Positions 4,015-56,263 are shown, numbered from the stretch's first letter. The stretch: 64,000 bases of DNA from an uncultured delta proteobacterium (GCA_963796255.1 CAWCLE010000010.1:125765-189764); one strand, 5' to 3'. Notes: generated by a model not told the origin, from the letters alone. Numbers and translations: made by a program.

Positions 4015-4098
4015 CGTATCTTGTCGGTTGGACCCTAAAATAATTATAAATACATTGAAATTGCACACTTTACCGCCGTTGGCATTTTTGGGTCACTG

Positions 4099-4114: not shown

Positions 4115-4321
4115 TTTATGATTATAAAGGTGGGTTACGGGAAACAGGAGATGAATTTCAGGTGCAGGCTTTTTATAGCGAGGAAGCTCTGGATGGCGGC
4201 GCAGACTGGAGCCTGCGGCTTCAGTTGCAACTCCTTTTTCCGAACTCAATGCTCAAAGCGGTAAAAATGCTGGAGCAGTAAATGGCTTCAATAAATCTCC
4301 TTTAATATCCACAATCAGAGG

Positions 4322-5839: not shown

Positions 5840-5975
5840 AGCGCGTTTACAATCGGATCGAAACCGGGCCTTCCGTGTCTGCGGATAAAGAAGGCCCGAT
5901 CAATCATTAGCGTTGAACCGGATCAGGCACGATCCGGGACAGCGCGGACAAAACCATGAATCAGGAGCAATCACC

Positions 5976-7439: not shown

Positions 7440-7543
7440 TCGAGCGACTGCCCGAAGTGACAAGAATACAACAGTAACCGCGACGCGTACAAGGGGTCGC
7501 CTGAAGCGCCCCCTTGGTCGTCCATTCTATAGGAACTACCGCC

Positions 7544-9049: not shown

Positions 9050-9094
9050 ATCACCCATTTCTTCACAAACATCCAAACCTGGGAGACTTCGATT

Positions 9095-10144: not shown

Positions 10145-10269
10145 TTGGCGCTCTGGATTGGCGATAAGAAAGCCAGGTTTTTCATCTTCCGTCTTATGGG
10201 GAGCAAGACGTCTGGACCCAAATAATAGCCAATGATTAAAGAGGGGCTAAAAGGGGAGCTAATGAAGCT

Positions 10270-15605: not shown

Positions 15606-17318
15606 ATGGGTATGCAATATGTAAGAGCCCACTATCCTAGCTTACTTTCCGGCAACTTGACAACCTTTTCCATCGACTCTATGATGGCAGATCATTTTTC
15701 TGCCGCTAATCAAATTGTAAGAGGTTTTATTGCTCCCTCTTCTCATTCTGGTATAATACGCTCCATGAAGACCAACTGGAACTATAAACATATCATTGAC
15801 CTGGAATACTTCCGGCATCAGGACACAGATATTGATGAGCTTACTCTACACCAGCGCGACAGAAATATTTTTCTCGACACCCATAAGCAACAGGAAATCA
15901 CCGGCAATGTGTCCAACAACCAGTTGATCAGAGCGTGGCTGCAAAAAAGAATCGCCGAGAATTTCCCCCCGCCTGAACAGAAAAGCCCGGGCACGCTTTT
16001 TGCCGACGCCTATTTTCTCATCAGGAGTCTGGCAATTATTTTTGGCATCTTGACTGGTTTGACGGCTGGGTTTTCATTTTTTACCTACACCGGCACCACC
16101 CCGGTCAACGTTTTTCATTTTCTGCTTCTTTTTGTGGTCTCGCAACTGGCCCTTGTCGGCCTGCTTCTCGGCACCCTGCTCCTTCACTTTTTGCTGCCCG
16201 GCTTAAAAATACCGTCTTTTTATTCTCTGCTTCTGCGCAAAATGATCGGCAGAATGATGGCCTTTTTCCATAAGCAGTGGCTACGCACGGCAACGCCGGA
16301 AAAAAGGGCCAGTGCCAACCACGCCTTAGGCATAATGGTGGCCCGCAGCACGGTCTACGGTTCGCTTTTCTACTGGCCGATTTTTGCGCTCAGCCAGCTT
16401 TTTGCCATCGGTTTCAATATCGGTCTACTCGCGGCAACCCTTATTAAAATCTCCACCAGCGATCTAGCATTCGGCTGGCAATCAACCATTCAGTTCAGTG
16501 CTGCGGCTATCCATAAATTTGTCATACTTGCCGCCATGCCATGGTCGTGGTTTGTTTCCCAGGCCACCAGTTATCCCAGTCTTGCCGAGATAGAGGGCAG
16601 CCGGATCATCCTCAAGGAAGGAATATACCATCTGACCACCGGTAACCTGATCGCCTGGTGGCCTTTTCTGGTCTTCTGCCTGCTCTTTTACGGTCTCTTG
16701 GTCCGGCTGATTCTTTTTCTGCTGGGTAAGTTGTTTGAGGCACGCTCCCTGCAAAGCCTTAAACTCGACACCCCGGACTACCTGGCCCTTATCAGGCGCA
16801 TGCAGACTCCTCTGGTAAGCTCGCAGGCAGCACCGGAGAAAAAGAGTGTGGCACCGGCAGGCAATCACCGGGGTCTGCCGCAGCCGGTACCTGCCCCTGC
16901 CCTCCATCTGGCACCACAGGTGGTGCTTATTCCAGATGAGATCTACTCTCTTTGCCCGCCGGAAAAACTTGCGCCACTGTTGCAGCAAAAAGGATTGACC
17001 ATAAAAGAATCGCACCGCTTTATGGTCAGCTACGACACTGACCAGCAGCTGCAAGAACTCCTCGCAGAACGTTCCTGGCATGCGGGCGAAGGAATCTTTA
17101 TTTTGATGGAAGGATGGATGGTGCCGTTGGTGGATTTTCTCACGTACCTCAAAGAACTGCGCACAATTCTCCCGGCAAAAAGCATCATCCATGTGGGATT
17201 GACGGGACGCCCCGAGGGGGCGGGATTATCCCCGACGACATCGTCCGACTTACGCATCTGGCGCCGGAAAATAGAGGCCCTCGGTGATCCCTATCTCACC
17301 CTCTTTTCGCTCATTTGA
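15606..17318 (+). CDS. DUF2868-like membrane protein, partner of the DUF3482 GTPase
   Basis: 570-aa ORF with central TM helices. The family call is from memory of the conserved DUF2868/DUF3482 gene pair. The true start may be an internal Met. Confidence 0.55.
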   Translation: MGMQYVRAHYPSLLSGNLTTFSIDSMMADHFSAANQIVRGFIAPSSHSGIIRSMKTNWNYKHIIDLEYFRHQDTDIDELTLHQRDRNIFLDTHKQQEITGNVSNNQLIRAWLQKRIAENFPPPEQKSPGTLFADAYFLIRSLAIIFGILTGLTAGFSFFTYTGTTPVNVFHFLLLFVVSQLALVGLLLGTLLLHFLLPGLKIPSFYSLLLRKMIGRMMAFFHKQWLRTATPEKRASANHALGIMVARSTVYGSLFYWPIFALSQLFAIGFNIGLLAATLIKISTSDLAFGWQSTIQFSAAAIHKFVILAAMPWSWFVSQATSYPSLAEIEGSRIILKEGIYHLTTGNLIAWWPFLVFCLLFYGLLVRLILFLLGKLFEARSLQSLKLDTPDYLALIRRMQTPLVSSQAAPEKKSVAPAGNHRGLPQPVPAPALHLAPQVVLIPDEIYSLCPPEKLAPLLQQKGLTIKESHRFMVSYDTDQQLQELLAERSWHAGEGIFILMEGWMVPLVDFLTYLKELRTILPAKSIIHVGLTGRPEGAGLSPTTSSDLRIWRRKIEALGDPYLTLFSLI

Positions 17319-17332
17319 GCACAGGAAAACCT

Positions 17333-18751
17333 ATGACACCGGAATTCGCCATCCTGGGCCACCCCAATGAAGGTAAATCTTCCGTCCTCTCCACCCTGGC
17401 TGAAGACGATTCGGTACGGGTCAGCTCGACTCCGGGCGAGACCATTGAATGCCGCACCTTCCCGGTGGTGATTGATGGCCGGGAAGTGCTCCGCTTCACC
17501 GACACCCCCGGCTTTCAAAATCCGGCCAGGGTTCTCAGTGAACTGAAAAAACGGACTCTCACCGACGAGAATCCGCTCACCACATTCAGGGCCTATGCCG
17601 CAACCATCCCGGAACTGCACGATGACTGCGAGCTGCTGGGCCCGGTGGAAAGAGGCGCAGGAATCATCTATGTGGTCGATGGTTCACGACCGGTCCGCAA
17701 TGTCGATCGAGCGGAGATGGAGATCCTGCGCCTAACCGGAAAGCCCCGGATGGCAATCATCAACTGCAAAGAAGACGGGGACAACTATCTCGAAGCCTGG
17801 AAAACCGAGTTCCGCAAGAACTTTAATTCCAACCGGGTGTTCAATGCCCACCGGGCCACTTATGCCGAACGGATTCTTCTTCTTACGGCCCTTGAATCAA
17901 TTGACCAGGACTGGCACGAGGCATTGTCCGAGGTGGTTGCTGCTTTCAAAAAAGACTGGGTGGCTCGTAACAGCGCCACGGCCGATACTATCCTGGGACT
18001 ATTGACCGACAGCCTGTCTCTGCAGTTGTCCGACAATATCGGTGCCGAAAAAGAGGCGGAGGAAGCTCGACGAAAACTGTTTATCTCCTACAGCGAGTCC
18101 ATCAGTCGGATGGAGCAGAAAGCCCATCAGCGCATCCGCAATCTTTATAAGCACAATATTTTCAATTATGACCTGCCGCCGCATTCGATCCTTAACAAAG
18201 ACCTGTTCGATGAGCAGACCTGGCAGCTCCTGGGTCTTACCCGGCAGCAGGTCATCATTGCCGGAGGACTTGGCGGAGCGGCCATCGGCGCCGGTCTGGA
18301 AATGGCCGCTTTCGGCCATGGCCTTGGCCTGTTCACTGCCGTCGGCACCCTGGCCGGGGCACTCGGCGCGATGTTTGGCGGCGAAAATCTTTCCGATAAG
18401 ATAAAGTTTTTGGGCCTGCCGCTAGGCGGCAAAAAAGTGCAGATCGGTCCGGCCAAATCCATCGATCTGCTTTTTATTCTGCTCAATCGTTCCCTGCTCT
18501 ATTATCAGCATACCATCAACTGGGCGCACGGCCGCAGGAACTCTAAAAAAGATCAGCCGTCGGAGATGCCACAGCCATACAATAAGTCACCCCAGGGGTT
18601 TACCCAGAACTGGTCGGCTGGAAATATCAAAATTTGTCATGATTTTTTCAAGGCAATCCGCAACGAGAAAGTTGCGCAAGGCCAAAAAACGGTCGAAAAA
18701 TTCCGCGAGCTTCTTCTGAAAACAATGCAGCAGATATCCGAGAGTGAGTAG
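17333..18751 (+). CDS. GTPase with a DUF3482-like membrane-associated C-terminus
   Basis: The preferred ATG is at 17333, after AGGAAA. Motifs are G1 GHPNEGKSS, G3 DTPGF and a G4-like INCKED, followed by a Gly-rich hydrophobic segment (IIAGGLGGAAIGAGLEMAAFG). Confidence 0.7.
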   Translation: MTPEFAILGHPNEGKSSVLSTLAEDDSVRVSSTPGETIECRTFPVVIDGREVLRFTDTPGFQNPARVLSELKKRTLTDENPLTTFRAYAATIPELHDDCELLGPVERGAGIIYVVDGSRPVRNVDRAEMEILRLTGKPRMAIINCKEDGDNYLEAWKTEFRKNFNSNRVFNAHRATYAERILLLTALESIDQDWHEALSEVVAAFKKDWVARNSATADTILGLLTDSLSLQLSDNIGAEKEAEEARRKLFISYSESISRMEQKAHQRIRNLYKHNIFNYDLPPHSILNKDLFDEQTWQLLGLTRQQVIIAGGLGGAAIGAGLEMAAFGHGLGLFTAVGTLAGALGAMFGGENLSDKIKFLGLPLGGKKVQIGPAKSIDLLFILLNRSLLYYQHTINWAHGRRNSKKDQPSEMPQPYNKSPQGFTQNWSAGNIKICHDFFKAIRNEKVAQGQKTVEKFRELLLKTMQQISESE

Positions 18752-18863
18752 AAGAAGAGTGCGCTGGTTTTTTGGGTCTGCTCCTAGTCAGGCTCCGGTT
18801 CCTGCATTAGTGTGTCACCAGCAGAGATTTCGGTTAAATAAAAAAAATGCCCATGGAGGAACA

Positions 18864-19499
18864 ATGGCCCCGGTGATAAAAGGTATCTTCCCGCAAAGCA
18901 CGAAAACCGACCACGAAGCCAAAAAAGATGAGAAGCAGGTTCCCAGCTATGTTTTGCATATTTCCATAACTTTTTCCGACCCGCTCATCTGGCGACGCGT
19001 CCAGGTACCGGGGACATTTACCCTGGCGCAACTCCACGACACCATCCAACAGAGTATGGGCTGGAGCGATTCCCATGTCCATCAGTTTCTGGTCGGCAAG
19101 ATCAGCTATGAACCAGCCATGAAAACCAAGTCCCCCCGAGAAACAAAGCGATTCGACGAATACAAATATAAGCTGTACACCCTGGAGGAAGGAATGCGGT
19201 TCATGTTTTCCTACCTCTATGGCGCCGGGGAAGGATGGGAGCATGAAATTCATCTGGAGGAGATTGTCCCGCCGACCAGACAGCTCAGCCACCCGATCCT
19301 GCTCGCCGGTGTAATGGCCTGTCCGCCGGAGACAATTGGCGACATTCATCAATACCAGAAGTTTTTATCCGATCTCGAATCGTCGGACAAAAAGATAGAT
19401 GAGAATCTGCTGGAGCTTACCGGCCGCCCCGATTTTGATCCGAATTATTTTGATCTGGAAGCGGCCAGGAAAAGAGTGGCGGCATGCGCTGCAAAGTGA
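18864..19499 (+). CDS. pRiA4b ORF-3-like family protein
   Basis: The preferred ATG is at 18864, after GGAGGA. The hallmark sequence is YVLHISITFSDPLIWRRVQVPGTFTLAQLHDTIQQSMGWSDSHVHQF. Confidence 0.7.
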   Translation: MAPVIKGIFPQSTKTDHEAKKDEKQVPSYVLHISITFSDPLIWRRVQVPGTFTLAQLHDTIQQSMGWSDSHVHQFLVGKISYEPAMKTKSPRETKRFDEYKYKLYTLEEGMRFMFSYLYGAGEGWEHEIHLEEIVPPTRQLSHPILLAGVMACPPETIGDIHQYQKFLSDLESSDKKIDENLLELTGRPDFDPNYFDLEAARKRVAACAAK

Positions 19500-19526
19500 C
19501 AATCCGGCGATGGCCGGCGGCAACGC

Positions 19527-20912
19527 TCACTTGCCGCTTTCACCCTCCGTTTCTCTCCCCGCCAGGCGGTATAATTTGATCTTGCGCCAGAGAGTTGTCC
19601 GGGGAATCCCAAGAATCTGGGCAGTCACGCCCCTATTGTAGCCTGTCCGCCTGAGCACTTTCATAATATATCTCTGTTCCATTTCGGCAAGCGAAGGAAA
19701 ACCGTCGCCCGCCAGGGTATCGAATTCCAGATGCTGCAGATCCTTGGGCAGATCCTGCGGGCCGATCTCCTCTCTTTCAGTCAGGGCCAGGGCCCGTTCA
19801 ATGATGTTTTCCAGCTCGCGAACATTACCCGGAAAGCTATACTGCAGCAGGATATTGAGTGCCGGCTCCTGAATTCTGGTGACCTGTTTATGAAAGGCCA
19901 GGCTGTATTTCTTGATAAAATGGCGGGTCAGCAGCGGGATATCCTCGCGCCTGGCTGACAGGGACGGGACGGCAATGGACACCACGTTCAGACGAAAAAA
20001 CAAATCTTCGCGAAAGGTGCCTGCCTCCACCTCATGCTTGAGTTCTTTGTTGGTCGCGGTGATAATCCGGATATCGAGATCGATCGATCGGGTACCACCG
20101 ACGCGGAAAATCTGCCGCTCCTGGATGACATGAAGGAGTTTTACCTGCAGGTTGAGCGGCATTTCCCCGATTTCATCGAGAAATACAGTGCCACCGGCGG
20201 CCGATTCGAGCAGTCCTATCTTGGTCGTCACGGCACCGGTGAAAGCCCCTTTTTCATGGCCGAAGAGTTCACTGTTGATAAGCTCATCGGTGAACCCGCC
20301 GCAGTTGAAGGTGACAAAGGGGTGGTTTTTTTTGGGGCTGAGCTGGTGGATCGCCTTGGCCACCAGTGCTTTTCCGGTGCCGCTTGCGCCCTGGATAAGC
20401 ACGTTGCAGTCAACCGGCGCCACCTTGCGAATCAGGGTGAACAGCTCCTGGATTAGCGGGCTGTTGCCGATAATCGAGGCGAGGCCGGAATCCCCCTTCA
20501 GTGCCTCTCTGAGGCGCAGATTTTCCAGCCGCATGGAAATTTTATCCCTGGCGCTCTGGGCCAGCAGACGAATCTCCGCGAGATTGACCGGCTTGGCGAC
20601 ATAGTGATAGGCTCCGTTACGCATGGCCTCGACGGCGGTTTCGACGCTTTTATGCCCGGTGATGATGATCACCTCGGTTTCCGGATGCAGCCCCTTTACC
20701 CTGGACAGTATTTCCAGGCCGTCGAGATCAGGCAGGCGCATGTCTAAAAAGACGATATCAAAGGCTTGCTGCACCATTCGTTCAAGAAAAGAACGGCCCA
20801 TAATGAAGGCCTCGACGGCATAGTCCTCGCGGGACAGGACTTGACTCAGCCGACGGCAGACAATTTCTTCATCATCGACAATCGCAAGGCGTAATTTCAT
20901 CCGATACTCCAT
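19527..20912 (-). CDS. NtrC-family sigma-54-dependent response regulator (REC-AAA+-HTH), cassette A
   Basis: REC domain (LAIVDDEEIV...DIVFLDMRLPDLDG), Walker A GASGTGKA, the GAFTGA loop and an HTH (GVTAQILGIPRTTLWRKIK). Confidence 0.9.
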   Translation of the reverse strand: MEYRMKLRLAIVDDEEIVCRRLSQVLSREDYAVEAFIMGRSFLERMVQQAFDIVFLDMRLPDLDGLEILSRVKGLHPETEVIIITGHKSVETAVEAMRNGAYHYVAKPVNLAEIRLLAQSARDKISMRLENLRLREALKGDSGLASIIGNSPLIQELFTLIRKVAPVDCNVLIQGASGTGKALVAKAIHQLSPKKNHPFVTFNCGGFTDELINSELFGHEKGAFTGAVTTKIGLLESAAGGTVFLDEIGEMPLNLQVKLLHVIQERQIFRVGGTRSIDLDIRIITATNKELKHEVEAGTFREDLFFRLNVVSIAVPSLSARREDIPLLTRHFIKKYSLAFHKQVTRIQEPALNILLQYSFPGNVRELENIIERALALTEREEIGPQDLPKDLQHLEFDTLAGDGFPSLAEMEQRYIMKVLRRTGYNRGVTAQILGIPRTTLWRKIKLYRLAGRETEGESGK

Positions 20913-22420
20913 CCGGCAAAATCATTGATAATCGCCGGCAACAGGACAGAGATCTTCGTTCCCCGGTCAGGCGCGCTGACCACCTCGATTCGGCCGCCAT
21001 GGCGCTTGACTATGGCAAAACTGACCGCCAGACCAAGCCCCGTTCCTTTGCCGACTTCCTTGGTTGAAAAAAACGGTTCGAAGATCTTTTCCTGAATGTC
21101 CGGCGGGATGCCGGCACCATTATCTTCCACGGTAAATTTAATAAAGCCGGCAATATTGGCCAAGCCCGCGTGGATGCCGATTTTTCCGCCGGCAGGTGTC
21201 GCCTGTATCGCATTGACCAGCAAATTGGTCAGGACCTGTTGCAGGTTGCCCAGATTGCCTTTTATCTCCGGCAGATTGTCTGTGCAGGTCGTTTCCAGCT
21301 GCAAGTCGGCCATCTTGAACTGGTTTTTAATGAGATTGACGGTGCTGGACAGGATAAGCGAAGGGGCAAGGTGGGAGAATTTCGGATTTTCCGTGCGGGA
21401 GAAATCGAGGAGATTCTTGACGATGTCCGCAGCGCGTTCCGCCTGGCTTTGAATATCCCCAAGCATTTCCGCGCAATTCTCATCGATGTCCTTACCGTAC
21501 TCTTCACTTAAGGCTTCTGCGGTGAGGGCAATATTATTGATCGGGTTGTTCAACTCATGGGCAATACCGGCAGTAAAAGTGCCTATCGCAGCGATTTTTC
21601 GCGTCTGGATCAGATCTTCCTGGTTTGTTTCCAGTTCTGCAGCCATACGATTGAAGGCCTCGATAAGACAGGAAATCTCCTCGAGGCGGACGCCGTGATA
21701 ATCAATGGGACTGAAATCTCCCCGGCCGACCGAGCGGGTTGTTTCCATCACCACATCAAGAGGGGTGAGCAGGCCTTGAGAGATAATTCGGAAAACCAGC
21801 ACCATCAGACCGAGAAGAATAACCAGCACAAAGAAGGGGATAGTCAGGATTCGGACAATGGTCGCATGGATACGTTTTCGCTTGATCAGGCGAAAATGGT
21901 CGGCGGCATCGGTGAGCGTCTTGCCGAGATTGCGGATTTTTTCCGGCGGGAGACTCTCTCCCACGCTGACGCGATCGATAAACCGGCGATAGTCGACCAG
22001 ATGGCTCTGGAAATTCTGATAGGCCAATCTGCCGTCAAGCAGTGGCAGATCCAGGGCAAGATCGGTAAGTAACACATCAATACGATTGAGATATTCCCTG
22101 CTTTCGGCGAGGCTCTCTTTGTCGGCATAAATCAAATAATTCTTCTCGAACCTGCGTACTTCTAAAATATTGTTCAACAAATCGTCATACCTCTCACTGA
22201 GCTCGAGGCGTGTTTTCAGCGTTGACAGGTTCCAATAAGCTAAAGCGGTCAGGACTCCGATTAAGATAAAGGTCAGGGCAAAAACGACCAGGATCTTGCC
22301 TTTTATTGATCCCAGGTGCAGCCCCTTGCCCTTCAACTGAGACAGTTGCCGAAAATAAAAGGTGGCAGGTTTATCGTTCATCATGCGACTCCGATAGATG
22401 GAATTTCGACAATATTTCAT
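20897..22420 (-). CDS. Sensor histidine kinase (2 TM with extracytoplasmic helical sensor, HAMP, HisKA, HATPase), cassette A
   Basis: H-box AGIAHELNNPINNI, N box LLVNAIQAT, and G boxes DNGAGIP and GTGLGLA. The gene overlaps the downstream RR gene by 16 nt. Confidence 0.85.
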   Translation of the reverse strand: MKYCRNSIYRSRMMNDKPATFYFRQLSQLKGKGLHLGSIKGKILVVFALTFILIGVLTALAYWNLSTLKTRLELSERYDDLLNNILEVRRFEKNYLIYADKESLAESREYLNRIDVLLTDLALDLPLLDGRLAYQNFQSHLVDYRRFIDRVSVGESLPPEKIRNLGKTLTDAADHFRLIKRKRIHATIVRILTIPFFVLVILLGLMVLVFRIISQGLLTPLDVVMETTRSVGRGDFSPIDYHGVRLEEISCLIEAFNRMAAELETNQEDLIQTRKIAAIGTFTAGIAHELNNPINNIALTAEALSEEYGKDIDENCAEMLGDIQSQAERAADIVKNLLDFSRTENPKFSHLAPSLILSSTVNLIKNQFKMADLQLETTCTDNLPEIKGNLGNLQQVLTNLLVNAIQATPAGGKIGIHAGLANIAGFIKFTVEDNGAGIPPDIQEKIFEPFFSTKEVGKGTGLGLAVSFAIVKRHGGRIEVVSAPDRGTKISVLLPAIINDFAGWSIG

Positions 22421-22470
22421 ATTGAAACATTTTTTATCGATTATAACCAGTTATGTTTCAATATGAAATA
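22413..22470. promoter_or_regulatory. Candidate activator-binding UAS: a perfect 18-bp inverted repeat with a 22-bp spacer
   Basis: TATTTCATATTGAAACAT (22413-22430) and ATGTTTCAATATGAAATA (22453-22470). Each arm contains the dyad TTTCA-N3-TGAAA. The UAS ends 73 bp upstream of the sigma-54 -24 element. Confidence 0.55.
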
Positions 22471-22542
22471 GAAAAGAAACAGGATAGCCGCAACAATCAT
22501 CGCATATTATTGGAATAATAGATTTTATCATTTCAAGCAACC

Positions 22543-22558
22543 TGGCATTCGATTTGCT
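22543..22558 (+). promoter_or_regulatory. Sigma-54 promoter of cassette A
   Basis: TGGCAT-TCGAT-TTGCT is a near-consensus -24/-12 element. It lies 25 nt upstream of the ATG at 22583, and the AAGGAG Shine-Dalgarno sequence sits between them. Confidence 0.75.
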
Positions 22559-22582
22559 TTAAGAGATAAACGAAGGAGATCA

Positions 22583-23002
22583 ATGGAAAAGATACTTGTA
22601 GCAATCGACAGCAGACGCGGCGCATGGGAGGCACTGTCCCATGCATGTTCCCTGGCCGGGAGAATAGATGCCGTTGTCAACGTCCTTCTGGTTTCTCCAC
22701 CCCACAGCACAAGACCCAGCGCTGAGTCCAGGGAAGTGGAAGAGGCAATCAAGAAAAGACTGCTGCTGCTTATCGAGGCGGCCCAGGCCAGGGGGGTAAA
22801 AATACATTATTTCATCACGGAGGGTGGATATGAACAGGAGGTGATAACTTTTATCAACAAGTACAAGATTTCGCTTTTTATATATGAGGCTGATGCCGGC
22901 AAGATTCGCCCCGGCGGGAAGGATCAGGCTTATTCCAGCTCTCTTCCTCACCGGATTTCATGTACGGTGGAAAGAGTTTTTACCAAGAAAAAAACAGCGT
23001 AA
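22583..23002 (+). CDS. Universal-stress-protein-like small alpha/beta protein
   Basis: 139 aa, with KILVAIDSRRGAWEALSHA at the N-terminus. I saw no clear G-2x-G-9x-G(S/T) ATP motif. Confidence 0.6.
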   Translation: MEKILVAIDSRRGAWEALSHACSLAGRIDAVVNVLLVSPPHSTRPSAESREVEEAIKKRLLLLIEAAQARGVKIHYFITEGGYEQEVITFINKYKISLFIYEADAGKIRPGGKDQAYSSSLPHRISCTVERVFTKKKTA

Positions 23003-23018
23003 ACAACGAGAGGATTCC

Positions 23019-23957
23019 ATGAGTTTTTCAATGAATTTGTATCTTCCCATTGCCGGCAACAGTATCAATTGCGTGGCGATACTGGGCCTCGGTGGAGTTG
23101 TCGGTCTGTTATCCGGCATCTTCGGCGTCGGTGGGGGTTTTCTAATGACCCCTCTACTTATCATGATGGGTATTCCCCCGACGGTGGCGGCCGCTTCCGA
23201 TTCCAATCAAATTGTCGGGGCGTCGACGTCCGGGACGCTGGCCCACTTTCGGATGGGCAATGTCGACATTAAAATGGGTCTGCTTTTACTGGTCGGCGGG
23301 ATAGCCGGCGGCACGGTCGGCGTGCAGATTATCAAAATTCTCCGCCAGCTCGGCAATGCCGATTTCCTGATCAGCGTCACCTACGTCCTTATGCTCGGCT
23401 TTGTCGGGGGATATATGTTTCTTGAAAGCCTGCAGGCCATGCGCAAGGCAAAGCAACCGTCCCCAATCGAGACCGCTCCCCGGAAAGAATCTGCTTACGC
23501 AAAAATGATGCGCAGCCTTCCCTTCCAGATGGATTTCCAGCGTTCCGGCATTCGCATGTCGCTGGTCATGCCTTTGGTGCTCGGCACCATGGTCGGTGTG
23601 CTTGCAGCCATCATGGGGGTTGGCGGCGGCTTCGTCATGGTCCCGGTGATGGTCTATCTGTTGCGTATGCCGATGCATGTGGTGGTTGGAACCAGCCTCT
23701 TTCAGATCCTCTTCACCTGTATCAATGTGACGATAATGCAGGCCTCCCAGAATCATACCGTGGATTTCATTCTTGCCCTGCTGCTGCTGATCGGTTCCGC
23801 CCTCGGGGCCCAGGTCGGGGCAAAGGTCGGCAAGAAACTCGGCGGCGAACAATTGAAAATCGCCCTTGCTTCCCTGGTTCTGGTGGTAATGTTTAAGATG
23901 CTCTATGACCTGCTGGCCAGACCGGATATCTTGCTCAGCTATATGGGAGGACATTGA
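23019..23957 (+). CDS. TauE/SafE (TSUP) family anion permease
   Basis: The preferred ATG is at 23019 (MSFSMNLYLPIAG). The protein has about 8 TM helices and a duplicated motif (GIFGVGGGFLMTPLL and IMGVGGGFVMVPVM). Confidence 0.8.
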   Translation: MSFSMNLYLPIAGNSINCVAILGLGGVVGLLSGIFGVGGGFLMTPLLIMMGIPPTVAAASDSNQIVGASTSGTLAHFRMGNVDIKMGLLLLVGGIAGGTVGVQIIKILRQLGNADFLISVTYVLMLGFVGGYMFLESLQAMRKAKQPSPIETAPRKESAYAKMMRSLPFQMDFQRSGIRMSLVMPLVLGTMVGVLAAIMGVGGGFVMVPVMVYLLRMPMHVVVGTSLFQILFTCINVTIMQASQNHTVDFILALLLLIGSALGAQVGAKVGKKLGGEQLKIALASLVLVVMFKMLYDLLARPDILLSYMGGH

Positions 23958-23958
23958 G

Positions 23959-24723
23959 ATGACATTTCTGCGCTATCTGCCCATGCCGGCCCTGCTGCTT
24001 CTCGTTCTTCTGCCCGGCCCGGCTCATGCAGCCGCTCCTCTATCTATGACCGTCGCCCCGGCAAACATCCATATGGGCGCCCGTTTTGACGGCACCACCC
24101 TGACAGTATCCGGAACGGTCCCTGCCGGCAGCGACGTCATCTTACGTTTCACCGGTGCACCGGAAGATCTCCATCTCCGCCAAAAGGGCAAGGTCTTTGG
24201 CCTGTTATGGATGAATACCGGCACGGTGCACCTGAAAAACGTGCCCAAAATCTGCCTTCTTGACTCGTCACGTCCTCTCACCGAACTGGGCGCTGCCGGG
24301 ACTTCCCTGGAGCTTGCCGGCCTCAAGTCCGATATTGCCGTGGAAAAAGGCGGCAACGCTGAAGAGAGCGAGGTGATCCATGAACTGCTGCTGCTGAAGA
24401 AACACGATCACCTGTACAGCGAAAGGACCAACAGCGTCGTTCTTGGTCCGGATACCGCAGACGGTCGCACCTTTACCGCCGGGATACGCATTCCTTCCGC
24501 GGTCGCTCCGGCCCACTACACCCTGGAACTTTTTGCCGTGCACGACGGGGCAATAAGCAGTCGACAGACAACCGATGTAACCGCGGAACTGACCGGCTTT
24601 CCCAGGTGGCTCAGCACACTGGCCTTTTCCAACGGCCTGCTCTATGGCATACTGGCGACTATCATCGCCGTTGTCAGCGGGCTGGCGATCGGCCTGGTAT
24701 TTCAAAGCAAGGGGGCACATTGA
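23959..24723 (+). CDS. TIGR02186-like (Alph_Pro_TM) exported protein with a C-terminal TM anchor
   Basis: The ATG at 23959 sits immediately after the TauE stop codon. It has a signal peptide ending PAHA. Motifs are KGKVFGLLWMN, LLLLKKHDHLYSE, APAHYTLELFAVHDG and a C-terminal TM helix (LLYGILATIIAVVSGLAIGLVF). This family is commonly paired with TauE-type genes, from memory. Confidence 0.6.
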   Translation: MTFLRYLPMPALLLLVLLPGPAHAAAPLSMTVAPANIHMGARFDGTTLTVSGTVPAGSDVILRFTGAPEDLHLRQKGKVFGLLWMNTGTVHLKNVPKICLLDSSRPLTELGAAGTSLELAGLKSDIAVEKGGNAEESEVIHELLLLKKHDHLYSERTNSVVLGPDTADGRTFTAGIRIPSAVAPAHYTLELFAVHDGAISSRQTTDVTAELTGFPRWLSTLAFSNGLLYGILATIIAVVSGLAIGLVFQSKGAH

Positions 24724-24737
24724 AAACGTGAACTCTT

Positions 24738-27308
24738 ATGTCTGCTCTCAATAAGGTCATCCAGAAACTGCTCGCTTACCCACGGCGCCGTAAACAGGTA
24801 TTGCCGTTTACGGTGCTTTTTAAAAAGTTCCAGTCCATCCTGGAAAGCAACAACCAGGTCCTTGAGCTGATGGCTGATATGGGCGATAAACTGGGAGGAG
24901 AGTATGTTTTTGACCGGCGGTATATTGAGGATGCGGCAGAAAAGGTCGGCGACCATGTTTTTAAGCTGATTTCCGGCCTCAGCATCCTCACCCAGCGCAA
25001 GAATGTCGAACTTTTTGTGGCTTTTGAGCGTATCCGGCAGGCAATCCAAGGCGAGTTGTCGGGCAACCATTATCTGCCAACCGGCAATCTGGTCCTGCCG
25101 CTTGGGGAACTAAATTCGGAAATGAGTGAGCAGGCGGGCGATAAAATGGCCAAGCTCGGTGATATCAGCAATCGCCTGGGACTCACAACATCTGAAGGTT
25201 TCGTGATAACCACCCAGGCTTTTTTTGAGTTCATGAAGAAAACAGGCCTGCTGGAAAAAGCCACCCAGGCACCACAGTTCCATCAAAAAGGCGACGATGC
25301 AGCCTTTCAACAGCTTGCCGAGACCATGCAGCAAAGTATTCTCGACACGCCGGTGCCGCGGCACCTGAAGGCCCAGATTTCTGCCCAGTTCGATGCTCTT
25401 GCCGAACGGATGCAGCGCCCGCAGTTGACCATGGCCGTTCGAAGCAGCGGCTGGGGCGAAGGAGAAGACACCAGTTTTGCCGGGCAGTACACCACCCTGT
25501 TGAACGTGTCGCCCGATCAGCTTATCGACTGCTACCGGCGGGTCGTCGCCGGTGCCTATTCGTTCAAGGCGTGGAGTTATCGCCTGCACAAGGGCTATCT
25601 GGAGCATGAGACAGCCATGGCCGTCGGTTGCCAGGTGATGGTCGACAGCCGGGTCAGTGGTGTCCTCCACACCTATGCCCCGGATGCGGCTGATGGGGCC
25701 ATGCTGGTCAACGGCATGTGGGGCCTCTGCGCCCCGGTAGTCGAAGGCAGTAGACGAACCGACACGATAATTCTCGATCGGCGCCCGCCTTACGCCGTCC
25801 TCACCGAGACCGTGGCGGCAAAACCGCAGCGGCTGGTCCTTGCCCGGGCTGGCGGCACGGTGTGGGAAGATACCCCGTCTGCGCTGCGCGACATACCCTG
25901 CCTGACCGGCAGCCAGCTAGAGGAACTCGCCCGGACCTCCATGCGCATCGAGCGCTACTATAAGAGACCCCAGGAGATTGAGTGGACGTTTGACGCTCAC
26001 GGCCGCTTACTCATCCTCCAGGCGCGGCCGCTGCGTTTTCGGGAAACGCCGTCCATTCCCAAGGCCCAACTGCTCGAGGCCACCCGCGATGCGGAGATCA
26101 TTCTCTCCGATCGGGGTTTAGTCGCCCAGCGTGGCATCGGCATCGGCAAAATCTTTCGTGTGGACAATGATACCGACCTGAAAAACTTCCCTTACGGCGC
26201 AATTATGCTGGCCAAATATACCTCCCCACGTTATTCGTCGATCATGCACAAGGCGCGGGGAATCATTACCGATGTTGGTTCCCCCACCGGCCATATGGCA
26301 TCCCTGGCCCGGGAATTCAGAGTGCCGACGATTGTCGATACGGAGGTGGCGACGTCTCTTTTGCACACCGGTGATGAAATCACCCTCGATGCCACCCAAA
26401 ACATTGTCTATCGCGGCAGTATCATCGCTCTGGCTCGTTTTGATTTGATTGAAGACGAGGTCTTTGAAGATTTTTATGAATATCGTCTGCTGCGCCGGCT
26501 GCTTAAATTTATCAGCCCTCTACACCTCCTGGATCCGCAAGGTGATAACTTTACCCCGGCCGCCTGTCGCACCTATCATGATATCGCCCGGTATATTCAT
26601 GAAAAAGCGGTTGAAGAGCTTATTAACCTGAGCGAAAAAAAAGAGGCGCAGTTTCTCTCCGCCCCGAAGCGACTGGTGGCCGACCTGCCGCTCGGGCTAA
26701 TGGTTATCGATGCGGGTGCGGGCACCAGTTGCGCACCGGATGCCCGGGTGGTCATGCCGGAGCAGATACTCTCTGTGCCCCTCCGTGATTTTTTAAACGG
26801 CCTCGATGAATCGGGCATGTGGGTGACCACTCCTGTTCCCGTCAATCTAGGCAGTTTCATGGCGAGCCTCACCCGTACTTCCATGGCCGGGCCAAAGGAC
26901 CTCGGCCGCAACCTCGCAGTCGTCCTGGAAAATTATATGAATATAAATATGCGGCTTGGCTATCATTTTACGGTAATAGATGCCTATATTTCAGATACAA
27001 TCAACGACAATTCCATCTATTTCAGGTTTCTCGGCGGGGTAACTGAATTTATCCGCCGCTCACGACGGGCGAAATTTATCGCTCAGGTCCTGGCCCATTT
27101 CGATTTCAGGGTTGAGGTACACGGCGATCTGGTGATCGGCCGGGTGAAAAAAATGTCCCGGCCGCGTATGTCCGAACGTATGCGTATCCTCGGCGGACTT
27201 GTCGGTTACACCCGGCAGCTCGACGCCCAGATGCACTCGGACAAAGATGTAACTCTGCACGCGCAACAGTTCATCGATGCCGTGCATAATGTGATGGGAG
27301 AAAAATAA
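24738..27308 (+). CDS. PEP-synthase-like phosphotransferase P1 (N-helical domain, intact PPDK_N ATP-grasp, phosphohistidine swivel, unassigned C-terminal domain; no TIM barrel)
   Basis: 856 aa. Motifs are AGDKMAKLGDI...EGFVITT, AVRSSGWGEGEDTSFAGQYTTLLNV, PQEIEWTF...LILQARPL, the swivel His in GSPTGHMASLAREFRVPTIV, and the C-terminal MRLGYHFTVIDAY...IYFRFLGG. Confidence 0.8.
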   Translation: MSALNKVIQKLLAYPRRRKQVLPFTVLFKKFQSILESNNQVLELMADMGDKLGGEYVFDRRYIEDAAEKVGDHVFKLISGLSILTQRKNVELFVAFERIRQAIQGELSGNHYLPTGNLVLPLGELNSEMSEQAGDKMAKLGDISNRLGLTTSEGFVITTQAFFEFMKKTGLLEKATQAPQFHQKGDDAAFQQLAETMQQSILDTPVPRHLKAQISAQFDALAERMQRPQLTMAVRSSGWGEGEDTSFAGQYTTLLNVSPDQLIDCYRRVVAGAYSFKAWSYRLHKGYLEHETAMAVGCQVMVDSRVSGVLHTYAPDAADGAMLVNGMWGLCAPVVEGSRRTDTIILDRRPPYAVLTETVAAKPQRLVLARAGGTVWEDTPSALRDIPCLTGSQLEELARTSMRIERYYKRPQEIEWTFDAHGRLLILQARPLRFRETPSIPKAQLLEATRDAEIILSDRGLVAQRGIGIGKIFRVDNDTDLKNFPYGAIMLAKYTSPRYSSIMHKARGIITDVGSPTGHMASLAREFRVPTIVDTEVATSLLHTGDEITLDATQNIVYRGSIIALARFDLIEDEVFEDFYEYRLLRRLLKFISPLHLLDPQGDNFTPAACRTYHDIARYIHEKAVEELINLSEKKEAQFLSAPKRLVADLPLGLMVIDAGAGTSCAPDARVVMPEQILSVPLRDFLNGLDESGMWVTTPVPVNLGSFMASLTRTSMAGPKDLGRNLAVVLENYMNINMRLGYHFTVIDAYISDTINDNSIYFRFLGGVTEFIRRSRRAKFIAQVLAHFDFRVEVHGDLVIGRVKKMSRPRMSERMRILGGLVGYTRQLDAQMHSDKDVTLHAQQFIDAVHNVMGEK

Positions 27309-27712
27309 TGCAACAGGACGACAACCAGAAATCATCGCGACTGCGCATCCTTATCTTAGATGATGAGCCTATCGTCTGTAAACGGTTGAAACCGGCTTTC
27401 GAAAAAAGAGGTTATGCCGTCGAAACCTATACGGAAAGCGCTTCAGCCCTTGCCCGCTTAGAAGAAATGGCGTTTGATATCGTCATCACCGACCTGAAAA
27501 TGGAAGGGGTCGACGGGATGCAGATCCTGACCCAGGCCAAAAAAACCGGCGAAAATACCCGCGTTATTATCATTACCGGCTTCGCTACTTTAGAAACGGC
27601 ACGGGAATCCTATCGCCTGGGGGCTTTTGATTTTGTCGCCAAACCATTTAAATTACGGGATATATTGGACTGTGTCAAAAAGGTCGAAGAGCAATTGCGG
27701 GCCGGACAATAA
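27308..27712 (+). CDS. Single-domain response regulator (CheY-like REC)
   Basis: 134 aa, with ILILDDEPIV...DIVITDLKMEGVDG...VIIITG...AKPF. Its ATG overlaps the P1 stop codon (TAATG). Confidence 0.85.
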   Translation: MQQDDNQKSSRLRILILDDEPIVCKRLKPAFEKRGYAVETYTESASALARLEEMAFDIVITDLKMEGVDGMQILTQAKKTGENTRVIIITGFATLETARESYRLGAFDFVAKPFKLRDILDCVKKVEEQLRAGQ

Positions 27713-27766
27713 CAGTCAATCAAGGTCATAAGAAGATTTTCCATATCATCCGGCGGAGACATAAAA

Positions 27767-30367
27767 ATGTGGTGGCAGAAGCTATTTGGCAGACGGCGTC
27801 CGGCAACAAAGGACACGGCTGAAATAAATATCTGGCGCCTCCAGTCTCTGTTTAATAATTTCAAGAGAATCCTCCAGTTAAACAACGCCGTCCTGGCCGA
27901 TATGGCCCGGATGGAACAGGCTCTCGGCGGCGAGTATATCTACGACCGGGCCTTTCTGGAAACGACGGTCCGGACGATTGCCTCCCATGTTCACCATGTG
28001 ACGTACAACCTCAACGCCTTGACCGGCAATGCCTATATATCCCTGTATGACCGGTATCAGGATATCCATACCATCCTCGACGACATCCTCTCCGGCAATA
28101 CCCGCGCCCTCGCCTGTCCACCGGTGCTCCCGTTGGCCGATATCGGCTGGGAAATGGAGCCGCTGGTCGGTATCGACCTGGTCTGCCTGGCCGAGCTGCA
28201 GCACCACCCGGGCATCCATGGTCCAGCCGGCTTTGTCATTACTTCTGAAGGAACCCGGGCACTGACCGGTCGGCTCAGTCATGACGGTTCAGAAACGGTC
28301 CAGATATCCGGCGAAAGGGTACGGACGGGTCTTGCCGAACAGCTGGAAATTCTGCTGCCGAACTGCGCTATCGGAAGGTTAACCGTCGTTGTTACCCAGA
28401 TCGACGATAATGAGGAAATAGCCAGGGAGCTTGGCAGGTTCACGGTCATGCCGACCGCGGACCGGTCGGTTTTGAGCATTATCGGAGATACAAGGCATCC
28501 CGCAGAACCTGATACCGGCAAGAATATCACCGATCTGCCGATTGAGGAAGATGAAACCGTCACTGCGGCGCCAAGTCGAGATCAGGGAAAATCCATCCAC
28601 CTCTATGTCCGTTGTCTGGAGCGTATTATCCATACTATCTTTGTCCGTATGCAGAAAGCAGGAGCAGACAGAGTCGTACAGTATGCGGTATTCGTCCGGT
28701 GCTGCCCCAATGTCGCAACCACCGGGCTGGTCCAGAGCCGCACAGCGACCACCAATTCTCATGACGTGCTGTCGATCACTGCGAATCATACCGAAGAGGA
28801 ATACGATACCTACCTCCTCAATCGCACCTATCCTTTCGATCTGATCCAGTCAGAGATTTCCGCCCATCCCGGTGCCGGGAATCTTTCCGTCGGCGGTCAT
28901 AGCCGCAGGTCGGCAATCCTCACCAATAAGCAACAAAAAGCATTGGCCGAAACCGCCATGACCCTGGAACGGATGCTGGGCATCCCTCTTGTCCTCACCT
29001 GGGAAATGCTCCCTGAAGCGAAGTGCAATATCACGCGCCTTATTCCCCTGCAGCAGACACCCCGGGAAATTTCCGTCGAAGAACAGCTCAATGAACAGGA
29101 CAATGCGAAAATTCTTTACCGGGGCGGCCAGTTGGTCCAGTCGGGTGTCGCAGCCGGCCACGTCGTGCATGTTACCGATACTATGGCTGCGACGGATTTT
29201 CCGGCAGGAGCCGTGGCGGTGGCCAGAACCGCATCGCCACAGTTGACCCCGATCCTCCAGCGCGCTGCGGCAATACTGACCGAATACGGCAGCCCCGCCG
29301 GCCATCTGGCCACGGTGGCCAGAGAACTGCGCCTGCCGGCCGTCTTTGCCATACCGGAGGTGTTGACCCTGCTGCCGCCGGGTACGGAAGTGACGGTCAA
29401 CGCAGGAGAAACGACGATCTATCAGGGTATTCTGCATACCATGCTGCAGCATGGCGGCGCGGACATGGAACTCACCCCGAACGATCCGGAATACCGGACC
29501 TTGCGGCGACTGTTACGGTTTATCATGCCTCTCCATCTGATTGATCCGGAGGCCGCCGATTTTACTCCCGAAGGCTGCCGCAGTTTTCATGATATCATTC
29601 ATTTCTGTCACGAACGGGCGGTTGAAGAACTGGCCCATTTCCAGGAGCGTCGACCGGGCCTTGGCTCAATCCGCACCAAACGAATGCGCCTCAAGGTGCC
29701 GATGGATATCCGCGTTCTCGATACCGGTGGAGGAATGATCAAAGATGCCGCAGAGGAACCGACCGGCGCCGATATCCTATCCGAACCCTTCGCAATATTC
29801 CTGGACGGACTGCTCCAACCCGAAGCCTGGACTGCCGAGACACCCTCTCTCGGCCTGCGCGACATCATCTCCGGCATGCCGCACAGCACGAACATTCTGG
29901 CCGTCCCAGCCGAGCAACTGGGGAAAAACCTGGCGATAATAAGCAGCGATTATATGAACATCAGCCTGCGCCTGGGCTATCATTTCAGCGTCATCGATGC
30001 CCATCTGGGCAGTGATGAACAGCGTAATTATGTCTATTTTCGCTTTGCCGGCGGCCTCGCCGACCCCGAGCGAAGAAAACGTAGAGCCACATTTATCAAA
30101 GATGTCCTTGAGGCAATGGCCTTCAAGGTATCGGTCAACGGCGACCTGGTCATAGGCCGGCTGAAACTGGTGGAAACAGAGCTGTTGCACTCAGCGATCT
30201 TTATTCTTGGCGCACTGACCGCTTTTTCCCGGCAACGCGATACCGGGCTCTATACCGATGCCGACACAAAGGTGCTGTTCAATACCTTTGCCGCCGCTTT
30301 TCTCAACCGTTTTGACTGGGACCTCAGCAGTACTTGCTCGCGCAGCCAAGGCCCTGCAGAGATCTGA
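27767..30367 (+). CDS. PEP-synthase-like protein P2 with a degenerate ATP-grasp and a retained swivel His and C-terminal domain
   Basis: 866 aa. The N-terminal region closely resembles P4. PLVGIDLVCLAEL replaces the GGKAANL motif. The VRSS...SFAGQ motif is absent. The swivel motif is YGSPAGHLATVARELRLPAVF. The C-terminal motif is LRLGYHFSVIDAH...YVYFRFAGG. Confidence 0.75.
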   Translation: MWWQKLFGRRRPATKDTAEINIWRLQSLFNNFKRILQLNNAVLADMARMEQALGGEYIYDRAFLETTVRTIASHVHHVTYNLNALTGNAYISLYDRYQDIHTILDDILSGNTRALACPPVLPLADIGWEMEPLVGIDLVCLAELQHHPGIHGPAGFVITSEGTRALTGRLSHDGSETVQISGERVRTGLAEQLEILLPNCAIGRLTVVVTQIDDNEEIARELGRFTVMPTADRSVLSIIGDTRHPAEPDTGKNITDLPIEEDETVTAAPSRDQGKSIHLYVRCLERIIHTIFVRMQKAGADRVVQYAVFVRCCPNVATTGLVQSRTATTNSHDVLSITANHTEEEYDTYLLNRTYPFDLIQSEISAHPGAGNLSVGGHSRRSAILTNKQQKALAETAMTLERMLGIPLVLTWEMLPEAKCNITRLIPLQQTPREISVEEQLNEQDNAKILYRGGQLVQSGVAAGHVVHVTDTMAATDFPAGAVAVARTASPQLTPILQRAAAILTEYGSPAGHLATVARELRLPAVFAIPEVLTLLPPGTEVTVNAGETTIYQGILHTMLQHGGADMELTPNDPEYRTLRRLLRFIMPLHLIDPEAADFTPEGCRSFHDIIHFCHERAVEELAHFQERRPGLGSIRTKRMRLKVPMDIRVLDTGGGMIKDAAEEPTGADILSEPFAIFLDGLLQPEAWTAETPSLGLRDIISGMPHSTNILAVPAEQLGKNLAIISSDYMNISLRLGYHFSVIDAHLGSDEQRNYVYFRFAGGLADPERRKRRATFIKDVLEAMAFKVSVNGDLVIGRLKLVETELLHSAIFILGALTAFSRQRDTGLYTDADTKVLFNTFAAAFLNRFDWDLSSTCSRSQGPAEI

Positions 30368-30475: not shown

Positions 30476-30742
30476 ATGGTTATGATCAGATCAGCAAATA
30501 ACAACGAGGCAGATGTATTAACAAAAATATCTTTTGCGTCAAAAGGCTATTGGAACTACCCAGAGAAATATTTCGAGGTATGGAAGAATGAAACAGTAAC
30601 CGTTCACCAGCACTTCATTTTCGTCCGATCAGGCCCCCTTCACATAGCCAACTATAGCTCGCAGGCCTGCTTGAACGAAACTGGAGCACTGGTTGAACGT
30701 TTACAGATCCGGGTTCTTTGGTCACTTACTGCGGTCCGGTGA
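30476..30742 (+). pseudogene. GNAT acetyltransferase remnant, N-terminal fragment only
   Basis: The first ~40 codons (IRSANNNEADVLTKISFASKGYWNYPEKYFEVWKNE) resemble GNAT N-termini. The similarity then stops, and no acetyl-CoA binding motif follows. Confidence 0.4.
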
Positions 30743-47588: not shown

Positions 47589-47604
47589 TGGCATAGAGGT
47601 TGCT
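47589..47604 (+). promoter_or_regulatory. Sigma-54 promoter of cassette B
   Basis: TGGCAT-AGAGG-TTGCT is near consensus. It is followed by a leader of about 165 nt before the ATG at 47770. Confidence 0.7.
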
Positions 47605-47769
47605 ATTACAAGATGGCACCTTGCGCGTAGACGGGATAATGAATTTTTCACTTATTTGACAGGTCGATGCAGGCTTTTATGGAAGGAGGGTGACAAGTAG
47701 GCAATGGAAGCAGGACGGTAATTTTAATGTCCAATATTAATTAATTATTTTTAATTCATGAGGGGTGTA

Positions 47770-56233: not shown

Positions 56234-56263
56234 CCTTTTGCCTCATCCACTCATCCTATTTTA

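Follow-up and report, generated by a model that had tools for sequence, protein, structure and literature searches.

The window analysed here, a stretch of 64,000 nucleotides (nt) from an uncultured delta proteobacterium (GCA_963796255.1, CAWCLE010000010.1:125765-189764), encodes five proteins that resemble phosphoenolpyruvate (PEP) synthase. The locus raises the question of what such proteins phosphorylate if they do not end in the PEP/pyruvate TIM barrel. All five genes lie on the plus strand: P1 (24738-27308, 856 amino acids, aa), P2 (27767-30367, 866 aa), P3 (49547-52009, 820 aa), P4 (58683-61376, 897 aa) and P5 (61373-64000), which overlaps P4 by 4 nt and is partial because it runs past the window end. 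The original prediction had placed the five open reading frames (ORFs) at these coordinates and had described them as paralogues, and both claims were borne out. The translations are full-length except for P5, and pairwise BLASTP comparisons gave E-values of 1e-36 to 0 at 25-50% identity. By the same method P1 was assigned to a class named PPS1, P2 and P4 (50% identical) to PPS2*, P5 to PPS3 and P3 to a fourth class.

Domain organisation of P1-P5

In P1 an N-terminal helical bundle (aa 1-115, 24738-25082) is followed by an ATP-grasp region (approximately aa 116-445), a swivel domain (approximately aa 446-564) with its phospho-His H519 encoded at 26292-26294, and a C-terminal domain (aa 565-856, 26430-27305). 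Sequence comparison supports the placement of P1-P5 in the PpsA/PPDK superfamily, with the order ATP-grasp, swivel His, C-terminal domain. It had been claimed that all five proteins share these four regions. Three of the regions hold throughout, while the ATP-grasp fails in P2 and P4. P2 keeps the N-terminal domain, the swivel His (H513) and the C-terminal domain beside a degenerate ATP-grasp, and the ATP-grasp of P4 is degenerate as well. All four regions are complete in P3, and the ATP-grasp, swivel and C-terminal domains of P5 are intact.

In the Pfam scan, PPDK_N (PF01326) was detected in P1, P3 and P5 with 219-241 bits; P2 gave no match and P4 reached 15.5 bits against a cut-off of 27. 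When aligned with E. coli PpsA, P1, P3 and P5 retain the motifs GGK, VRSS, SFAGQ, E-W and Q-x-R, none of which is found in P2 or P4. The PPDK_N-type ATP-grasp predicted for all five is thus confined to three of them. The swivel domain (PF00391) was present in all five proteins (47.8-69.1 bits), and the H-x4-ARE core, in the context H-x4-ARE-x3-P, is invariant in the alignment of P1-P5 with E. coli PpsA. The longer His motif described at first was too strict, as P3 (GSRASHFSSVARE) deviates from it at two positions. The PEP/pyruvate TIM barrel (PF02896) was absent from P1-P5 even at E = 1. The expected Pfam pattern was found in full only in P1, P3 and P5.

The loss of the ATP site is a property of the whole PPS2* class. 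Across related loci GxK, VRSS and SFAGQ were kept in none of 29 members, and the swivel His was kept in all 29 and C-x3-HD-x5-HE in 27. Judged from these alignments, PPS2* is an old, selected pseudo-ATP-grasp class rather than a decaying gene. The description of the proteins as ATP-dependent phosphotransferases is therefore plausible for P1, P3 and P5, while P2 and P4, with an ATP-grasp that is degenerate class-wide, cannot be ATP-dependent on their own.

The C-terminal domain

The C-terminal domain of about 280 aa (C-domain) had no Pfam or NCBIfam match in any of the five proteins. Two cores, C-x3-HD-x5-HE and [YF]HF..D...N-x3-FRF-x-GG...R-x2-R, are present in all of them; of the C-terminal motif as first written, the '[FT]P' prefix did not hold, being absent from P4 and P5. 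A search with P1 residues 565-856 returned 358 proteins that were either unnamed or called "pyruvate, water dikinase" or "PEP-utilizing enzyme", and no Pfam family covered the C-domain region in any of these homologues. They are fragments of at most 511 aa, and architectures were taken from an exhaustive profile search of 1.84 billion cluster representatives (clusters at 50% identity). At E ≤ 1e-3 it returned 1,493 proteins, of which 756 reached E ≤ 1e-30. The full-length proteins among the best 150 matches have about 800-990 aa; in them the C-domain directly follows the swivel domain, and most of them end with it.

Conservation was computed over 406 distinct C-domain sequences and is given in P1 numbering. 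Full conservation (100%) was observed for H614, H743, G766, G767, R777 and D829, followed by D615, H621 and D797 (99%), D658, Y733 and R826 (98%), C610 and N758 (96%), R774 (95%), E622 (94%) and R763 (92%). The near-invariant set (C610, H614, D615, H621, E622, H743, N758, R763, R774, R777, D797, R826 and D829) is common to all four classes, and H614 and H621 stand seven residues apart on one helix, shortly after C610. Because polar residues are 92-100% conserved over so many sequences, the domain looks like an active site or a metal/anion site and not like a mere scaffold. A Cys/His metal site together with an Arg-rich anion site would be a reasonable guess. From the position of the domain and its invariant polar residues we infer that it may recognise the substrate.

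The AlphaFold2 (AF2) model of the C-domain, built with 64 homologues, reached a pLDDT of 84.3 and a pTM of 0.73. It shows helices at 16-25, 49-69, 116-127 and 140-150, then four consecutive antiparallel strands (161-202), and after these a helix, a hairpin and two long helices; no (beta-alpha)8 barrel was formed. In a Foldseek search against the PDB nothing was found at E ≤ 1e-3. The best match was 2plg (E 0.02, TM 0.21/0.34), the runners-up were proteins resembling type III secretion system (T3SS) chaperones, and no TIM-barrel protein was among the top 50 matches listed. No PDB sequence matched the C-domain profile at E ≤ 10, and hhalign aligned this profile with the C-terminus of E. coli PpsA at a probability of 0.2%. 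A diverged TIM barrel was thus ruled out by Pfam, hhalign, the AF2 secondary structure and Foldseek, and the original prediction was right that the domain is not the PEP/pyruvate barrel; its AF2 model is a fold of helices and an antiparallel sheet. A YbjN/T3SS-chaperone-like or DesK-like fold was also considered and rejected, the matches being weak (Foldseek E 0.02-0.36, TM ≤ 0.34).

The N-terminal domain

The first 115 or so residues form an extension relative to E. coli PpsA in the alignment. The predicted helical character of this region was confirmed by AF2 (pLDDT 87.5; helices 2-12, 24-52, 60-85 and 90-107), which models a short helix followed by three long ones in a three-helix bundle. 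A motif ADMGDKLGGEY[IV]FD is conserved, and there is no conserved His. The best Foldseek match had an E-value of 1.3, and a PDB profile search returned nothing meaningful. On these three grounds an HPt- or DHp-like phosphotransfer bundle was rejected. The domain is a generic helical bundle, and a role in sensing or oligomerisation is conjecture.

Neither the N- nor the C-terminal domain has a Pfam or PDB match, and the superfamily itself was already known. No characterised protein with the architecture of P1-P5 was found in the PDB or in the literature searched. No account of the two domains, of the four classes with their pseudo-ATP-grasp member or of the obligate receiver partner introduced below was found in that literature either.

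Gene neighbourhood

The receiver gene and the accompanying TauE, membrane-protein, kinase and phosphatase genes, which had been overlooked, give the strongest hints of function. Three cassettes occur in the window, each centred on a TauE/TSUP permease. Cassette 1 (plus strand) comprises a USP-like protein of 139 aa (22583-23002; PF00582, 38.6 bits), a TauE/SafE-family permease (TauE1, 22884-23957), an Alph_Pro_TM membrane protein (23905-24723; PF09608, 141.7 bits; TIGR02186, 64.9 bits against a cut-off of 255), P1, a stand-alone CheY-like receiver and P2. The longest TauE1 ORF overlaps the USP-like gene by 119 nt; its long start is probably an over-call, since homologues begin at the equivalent of M46 (MSFSMNLYLP), and the real start is probably at nt 23019. 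The family of the 23905-24723 protein is named 'co-occurring with TauE' in SEED-type annotation. The receiver (27308-27712, 134 aa; PF00072, 98 bits) has the DD, D, T and K phospho-acceptor residues, and its ATG overlaps the P1 stop. Divergent from the cassette, on the minus strand, lie a HAMP histidine kinase (20897-22420) and a sigma-54-dependent response regulator (19527-20912).

Conservation of this arrangement was assessed in a genome scan with one genome per species. The C-domain was found in at least 586 species genomes, and operons were counted in the best 80 of these. All 80 belong to Desulfobacterota, a few being recorded merely as 'Proteobacteria' or 'Pseudomonadota', and they include Desulfobulbus, Desulfovibrionaceae, Syntrophobacteraceae, Desulfobacteraceae and Desulfacinum hydrothermale. 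The order TauE, Alph_Pro_TM-like protein, PPS1, receiver (about 130-160 aa) was observed in 80 of 80 loci as far as the contigs extend, the membrane protein coming after TauE in essentially all loci with sufficient upstream flank. Most loci also have a kinase and a sigma-54 regulator near the PPS1 operon, and about half continue with PPS2* and PPS3. An ORF family of about 150 aa precedes TauE in 54 loci, its likeness to the USP-like ORF of the window being judged by eye only, and a convergent ApaH/PrpE/PPP-type metallophosphatase follows PPS3 in 23. In the stand-alone receiver the DD, D, T and K residues are kept over 78 loci and helix 1 (IVCKRLKP) is strikingly conserved. In three of the 150 best homologues (P0153, P0169 and P0187) the receiver is fused to the C-terminus.

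A close relative of the region, locus L001, is colinear with window positions 18447-30349 at 89.7% nucleotide identity, and the match stops at the end of P2. There L001 (11930 onward) goes on with PPS3, where the window instead has an 88-aa ORF without a Pfam match (30476-30742), followed by a TetR regulator and the operon of an ABC-2 exporter. The PPS3 of cassette 1 itself has therefore been lost. The diverged PPS2*-PPS3 pair P4-P5 lies 28 kb from cassette 1.

Cassette 2 contains TauE2 (47758-48921, plus strand), a small membrane protein of 187 aa without a Pfam family (48976-49539, plus strand) and P3. Its divergent regulators are a second kinase (45655-47121) and a second sigma-54 regulator (44244-45605), both on the minus strand. 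An OmpA-family gene (52119-52763) comes after P3, followed on the minus strand by an ApaH/PrpE/PPP-type metallophosphatase (52827-53612) that is 56% identical to a related-locus copy. Cassette 3 (54486-57992, minus strand) is divergent from P4-P5. It consists of a small membrane ORF of 114 aa without a Pfam family (57648-57992), TauE3 (56264-57598), which has an N-terminal extension of about 100 aa starting with a signal-like sequence, a weak USP-like ORF (55514-56233) and a tandem USP (54486-55361). The three small proteins behind the TauE genes were tried as one family and rejected: they share 17-18% identity, and only the 23905-24723 product matches Alph_Pro_TM.

The 64 kb were searched for sigma-54 -24/-12-like sites with TGGCAC-N5-TTGC, allowing at most one mismatch, and six were found. 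Three of them stand, correctly oriented, upstream of the three TauE cassettes: TGGCAT-N5-TTGC at 22543-22557 (plus strand) for cassette 1, 47589-47603 (plus strand) for cassette 2 and 58089-58103 (minus strand) for cassette 3. A further site with one mismatch (TGGCACTCTGGTTGG; 53777-53791, minus strand) is located just upstream of the metallophosphatase gene, which may therefore share the regulation of the cassettes.

Relation to the Desulfovibrio nitrate cluster

In Desulfovibrio, a 'nitrate cluster' with poor annotation (DVU0251-0245 / Dde_0597-0605) was reported by Korte et al. 2014 (PMC4001038); it has genes for TauE, a hypothetical protein, a PtxB-like binding protein, a kinase, a receiver, a PPDK_N plus mobile-domain protein and a PTP/DSP phosphatase. 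Individually tested transposon mutants in the genes for TauE, the hypothetical protein DVU0250, the receiver and the PPS-like protein were nitrate-resistant, and insertions in the PtxB-like gene were among the fittest in the pooled assay (PMC4001038). In strain DvH the fitness value of the phosphatase mutant (-6.04) was opposite in sign to that of the PPS-like mutant (+2.18), and the receiver mutant still reached +9.14 although the kinase gene DVU0248 is a pseudogene (PMC4001038). Cluster mutants of strain G20 showed mild growth impairment on thiosulfate, and leaky thiosulfate transport was proposed by the authors (PMC4001038). The published work consists of phenotypes; it holds no biochemistry and does not mention the new domains (PMC4001038). 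Literature searches for DVU0246, Dde_0604 and neighbouring locus tags returned this paper only, besides one unrelated mention, and a G20 phosphate-limitation paper and a sulfate-transporter review contained nothing on the cluster.

According to the InterPro entries in Table 3 of PMC4001038, DVU0246 and Dde_0604 resemble P3 in having PF01326 and PF00391 and no PF02896. Relatives of P3 in Pseudodesulfovibrio are 48-52% identical. The P. piezophilus locus (L082) encodes TauE, a hypothetical protein (196 aa), Phosphonate-bd, an sCache/PAS kinase, a receiver (119 aa), a PPS-like protein and a PTP/DSP, which is the seven-gene order of DVU0251-0245 plus one minus-strand gene inserted after the hypothetical. 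No output domain is attached to the receiver beside the kinase, and 2 nt separate the end of the receiver gene from the PPS-like gene. Sequence comparison indicates that cassette 2 is the match of this cluster, because TauE2 (61%), the 187-aa protein (37%, E 2e-29, with the hypothetical after TauE in the DVU0250 position) and the P3 C-domain (52%) are identical to that extent; whole P3 is 48% identical. By shared gene order, cassette 2 then probably corresponds to the published nitrate cluster. The two differ in that the nitrate cluster has an adjacent PtxB-like gene, receiver and PTP, whereas the P3 cassette of the window lacks these and has a HAMP kinase and a sigma-54 regulator. P1, P2, P4 and P5 represent three other classes in a larger operon that is absent from the nitrate-cluster paper.

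A second set of published data concerns thiosulfate. In the Dissulfuribacter proteome a 'PEP synthase' (log2 fold change 3.4), a 'transmembrane protein co-occurring with TauE' and TauE rise together in thiosulfate disproportionation, and the three genes are adjacent (PMC13490349). Judged by names and adjacency only, this trio would belong to the family of P1-P5.

A P3-class protein named 'PpsA9' occurs in Desulforapulum autotrophicum HRM2 (L084, CP001087.1, 10001-12430) beside a 1306-aa OmpA-domain protein and a methyltransferase/corrinoid cluster; the window likewise has an OmpA-family gene next to P3.

Proposed function

The reading preferred here, tentatively, is that a small oxyanion delivered by the permease is the acceptor and that the receiver acts as a switch. 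P1, P3 and P5 would be ATP-driven phosphotransferases with a swivelling phospho-histidine. As in PEP synthase, the ATP-grasp would load the swivel His (H519 in P1) with the beta-phosphate, with release of AMP and Pi, and the swivel would hand the phosphoryl group to the alpha/beta C-domain in the acceptor position and not to a TIM barrel. We infer these phosphotransfer steps from the established chemistry of PpsA/PPDK; the nature of the acceptor and the control by the receiver are likewise proposals. P2 and P4 would have to be loaded in trans, P4 being translationally coupled to P5, or else serve as non-catalytic subunits, because they keep the His and the C-domain while their ATP-grasp is degenerate.

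P1-P5 would form the cytoplasmic part of a module that further includes the TauE/TSUP anion permease, the small membrane partner, the two-component system and a candidate sigma-54 promoter. The receiver, beside the enzyme or fused to it, would most likely turn the enzyme on or off. Since the Desulfovibrionaceae receiver lacks an output domain and its gene ends directly before that of the PPS-like protein, the phospho-receiver may act on the enzyme, or the enzyme may be a further donor to the receiver. The likeliest acceptor would be the oxyanion carried by the permease, probably a sulfur oxyanion, or a close metabolite. To our knowledge, all characterised enzymes combining PPDK_N and a swivel domain act on small molecules or glucans by phosphorylating or activating them, which speaks for this reading. 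The nitrate genetics are compatible with a small-anion acceptor and with a protein acceptor alike. With the former, nitrate could be used as an analogue in a futile or toxic reaction that is worsened by phosphatase loss; with the latter, the enzyme could activate the permease and the phosphatase counteract it.

Several points weigh against a small oxyanion. The C-domain has no ligand or structural relative, and P1-P5 are known from sequence and model alone. A shared pocket for the conserved residues is an assumption. A metabolic enzyme would not usually come as three paralogues in one operon that agree in their acceptor-site residues and include a pseudo-enzyme. Protein phosphorylation would explain equally well or better the constant receiver, the neighbours of protein-phosphatase type (PPP/ApaH-like in the window, PTP/DSP in Desulfovibrionaceae) and the USP genes. 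The link to DVU0246 runs by synteny through P. piezophilus and not through the DvH sequence. In D. autotrophicum no TauE gene lies near 'PpsA9', so that the permease link is not universal.

A protein-directed phosphotransferase, that is, a signalling device, is accordingly the first alternative, possible although doubtful. The phosphoryl group of the His would be handed to the Asp of the receiver, or else to a hydroxyl side chain in the permease, its membrane partner or a USP. The receiver route would amount to a relay like that of hybrid kinases, working around the histidine kinase or in addition to it, with the C-domain as the site of docking and transfer and the phosphatase reversing the mark. 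It is favoured by the receiver itself, always adjacent and translationally coupled to the enzyme, complete in its phospho-acceptor residues, very conserved in helix 1 and, in the three fusion proteins, placed at the C-terminus as is the acceptor receiver of hybrid kinases. Two unrelated phosphatase families downstream, PPP/ApaH-like (in the window and the 23 related loci) and PTP/DSP (in P. piezophilus and DvH), point the same way, as do the pseudo-enzyme paralogues and USP genes typical of signalling modules. The opposite signs of the DvH phosphatase and PPS-like mutants and the strong receiver mutant in spite of a pseudogene kinase (PMC4001038) agree with it. The only folds that the C-domain sheet resembles, and weakly, are the protein-binding ones of YbjN and T3SS chaperones, although the similarity is not significant (E 0.02, TM 0.21-0.34). 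We know of no PPDK_N-type enzyme that phosphorylates a protein, which counts against a protein acceptor. The conversion of ATP to AMP and Pi would also be costly for signalling, the invariant Cys/His/Asp/Arg set exceeds what a docking surface usually needs, and neither the P3 cassette of the window nor the 'PpsA9' locus has an adjacent receiver. The most far-reaching form of this alternative appears rather unlikely: a new kind of protein phosphotransferase that feeds two-component signalling, from His through the C-domain to the receiver Asp or to a hydroxyl in the permease module, is reset by PPP or PTP phosphatases and gates TauE anion (thiosulfate/nitrate) uptake in sulfate reducers and sulfur disproportionators.

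It is improbable that the C-domain is merely a family-specific oligomerisation or regulatory domain that stands in for the barrel in dimer formation, without a second substrate, the proteins then being regulated ATPases, autophosphorylating switches or partly decaying paralogues. The C-terminal domain of PpsA/PPDK is also known to mediate oligomerisation, neither Foldseek nor the PDB profile search recognised a ligand-binding fold, and part of the family, the pseudo-ATP-grasp members, evidently does without catalysis. Such a role does not account for 3 His, a Cys, Asp/Glu and 4-5 Arg that are 92-100% conserved across four ancient classes, nor for a swivel His retained by every member of the ATP-grasp-dead class; decay is at odds with intact genes whose long ORFs are kept across hundreds of species. 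Ordinary PEP synthases (pyruvate, water dikinases), suggested by source names such as 'pyruvate, water dikinase' and 'PpsA9' and by the best NCBIfam matches, are a most improbable reading, given scores for P1 far under the equivalog cut-offs (NF005057, 286.7 against 598 bits; TIGR01418, 274.9 against 739.75) over model positions 1-465 only, the absence of PF02896, the negligible hhalign probability and a fold that is not a barrel. Because the barrel has been exchanged for a new domain and the genes sit in an anion-permease/signalling cluster conserved in sulfate-reducing bacteria, P1-P5 are almost certainly not PEP synthases. The probability left by these four readings belongs to explanations that were not considered.

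The names under which C-domain proteins were seen in their sources, pyruvate, water dikinase, PEP-utilizing enzyme or similar, can distort metabolic reconstructions. In one proteomics paper a gene that, from its neighbours, seems to be of this family was grouped with carbon metabolism, even though its rise paralleled that of its TauE neighbours. Only a single genetically defined locus renders Desulfovibrio nitrate-resistant when lost, and the module appears to correspond to it. Nitrate is used against oil-field souring, and the identity of the acceptor could explain both the resistance and the induction during thiosulfate disproportionation.

Other features of the window

Just upstream of the cassette 1 regulators, positions 15606-19499 (plus strand) encode a DUF2868 protein, a GTPase with DUF3482 and a PRiA4_ORF3-like protein. 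A Lon-type protease (42191-44242, plus strand) carries a receiver before AAA and Lon_C, with about 120 N-terminal residues without an assigned domain; a response-regulator Lon is unusual. At 1953-11247 (plus strand) a GAF-PAS sigma-54 activator precedes four tandem DUF1254/DUF1214 paralogues (4322-5839, 5913-7439, 7514-9049 and 9095-10144), after which a Phenol_MetA_deg outer-membrane protein is encoded (10270-11247).

Comparison with known enzyme families

Among the closest known systems, PpsA and PPDK share with P1, P3 and P5 the PPDK_N ATP-grasp, the swivel domain with its catalytic His and the placement of the acceptor domain last. The best NCBIfam matches of P1-P5 were PEP synthase models, which were covered only over model positions of about 1-470, and PDB sequence matches to P1 (2ols, 8a8e, 5hv1 and others) stop at residue 565 or so. 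Beyond this point PpsA and PPDK have the PEP/pyruvate TIM barrel, whereas P1-P5 carry an unrelated alpha/beta domain. P1-P5 also have the additional N-terminal helical bundle of about 115 aa, which PpsA lacks, and they score far under the PpsA cut-offs; P2 and P4 differ further in having no ATP site.

Rifampin phosphotransferase and the prodigiosin ligases PigC/RedH resemble P1-P5 in combining a swivel His with a family-specific domain and no TIM barrel, and PPDK_N is common to them and P1, P3 and P5. Their substrate domain stands after the ATP-grasp and before a swivel at the C-terminus. In P1-P5, by contrast, the swivel is central (in P1 followed by 290 aa) and the new domain is C-terminal, so that the rifampin-phosphotransferase order does not fit, in agreement with the original prediction. 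The corresponding models (NF041857, NF052631 and NF052632) gave 171-194 bits against cut-offs of 999-1350, with matches in two separate stretches.

PTS Enzyme I has an HPr-binding domain and a TIM barrel, and P1-P5 have neither; its model TIGR01417 matched the swivel region only (27.6 bits, cut-off 341.7). Enzyme I demonstrates that the swivel His of this superfamily can phosphorylate a protein. With Enzyme I and with hybrid histidine kinases P1-P5 share a mechanistic resemblance only, namely a His on a mobile element that is charged by ATP or PEP. HisKA and HATPase_c domains gave no Pfam match in P1-P5. A C-terminal receiver is found both in hybrid kinases and in some P1-type homologues; His-to-Asp transfer is a feature of the former and conceivable for the P1 family by analogy only. 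Set beside these systems, the C-domain would extend the swivelling-His mechanism by an acceptor module of a new kind that has no relative among solved structures. Because a receiver is constantly paired with the enzyme and in some homologues fused to it, it becomes a directly testable idea that an enzyme of PEP-utilizer type serves as the output or the input of a two-component system.

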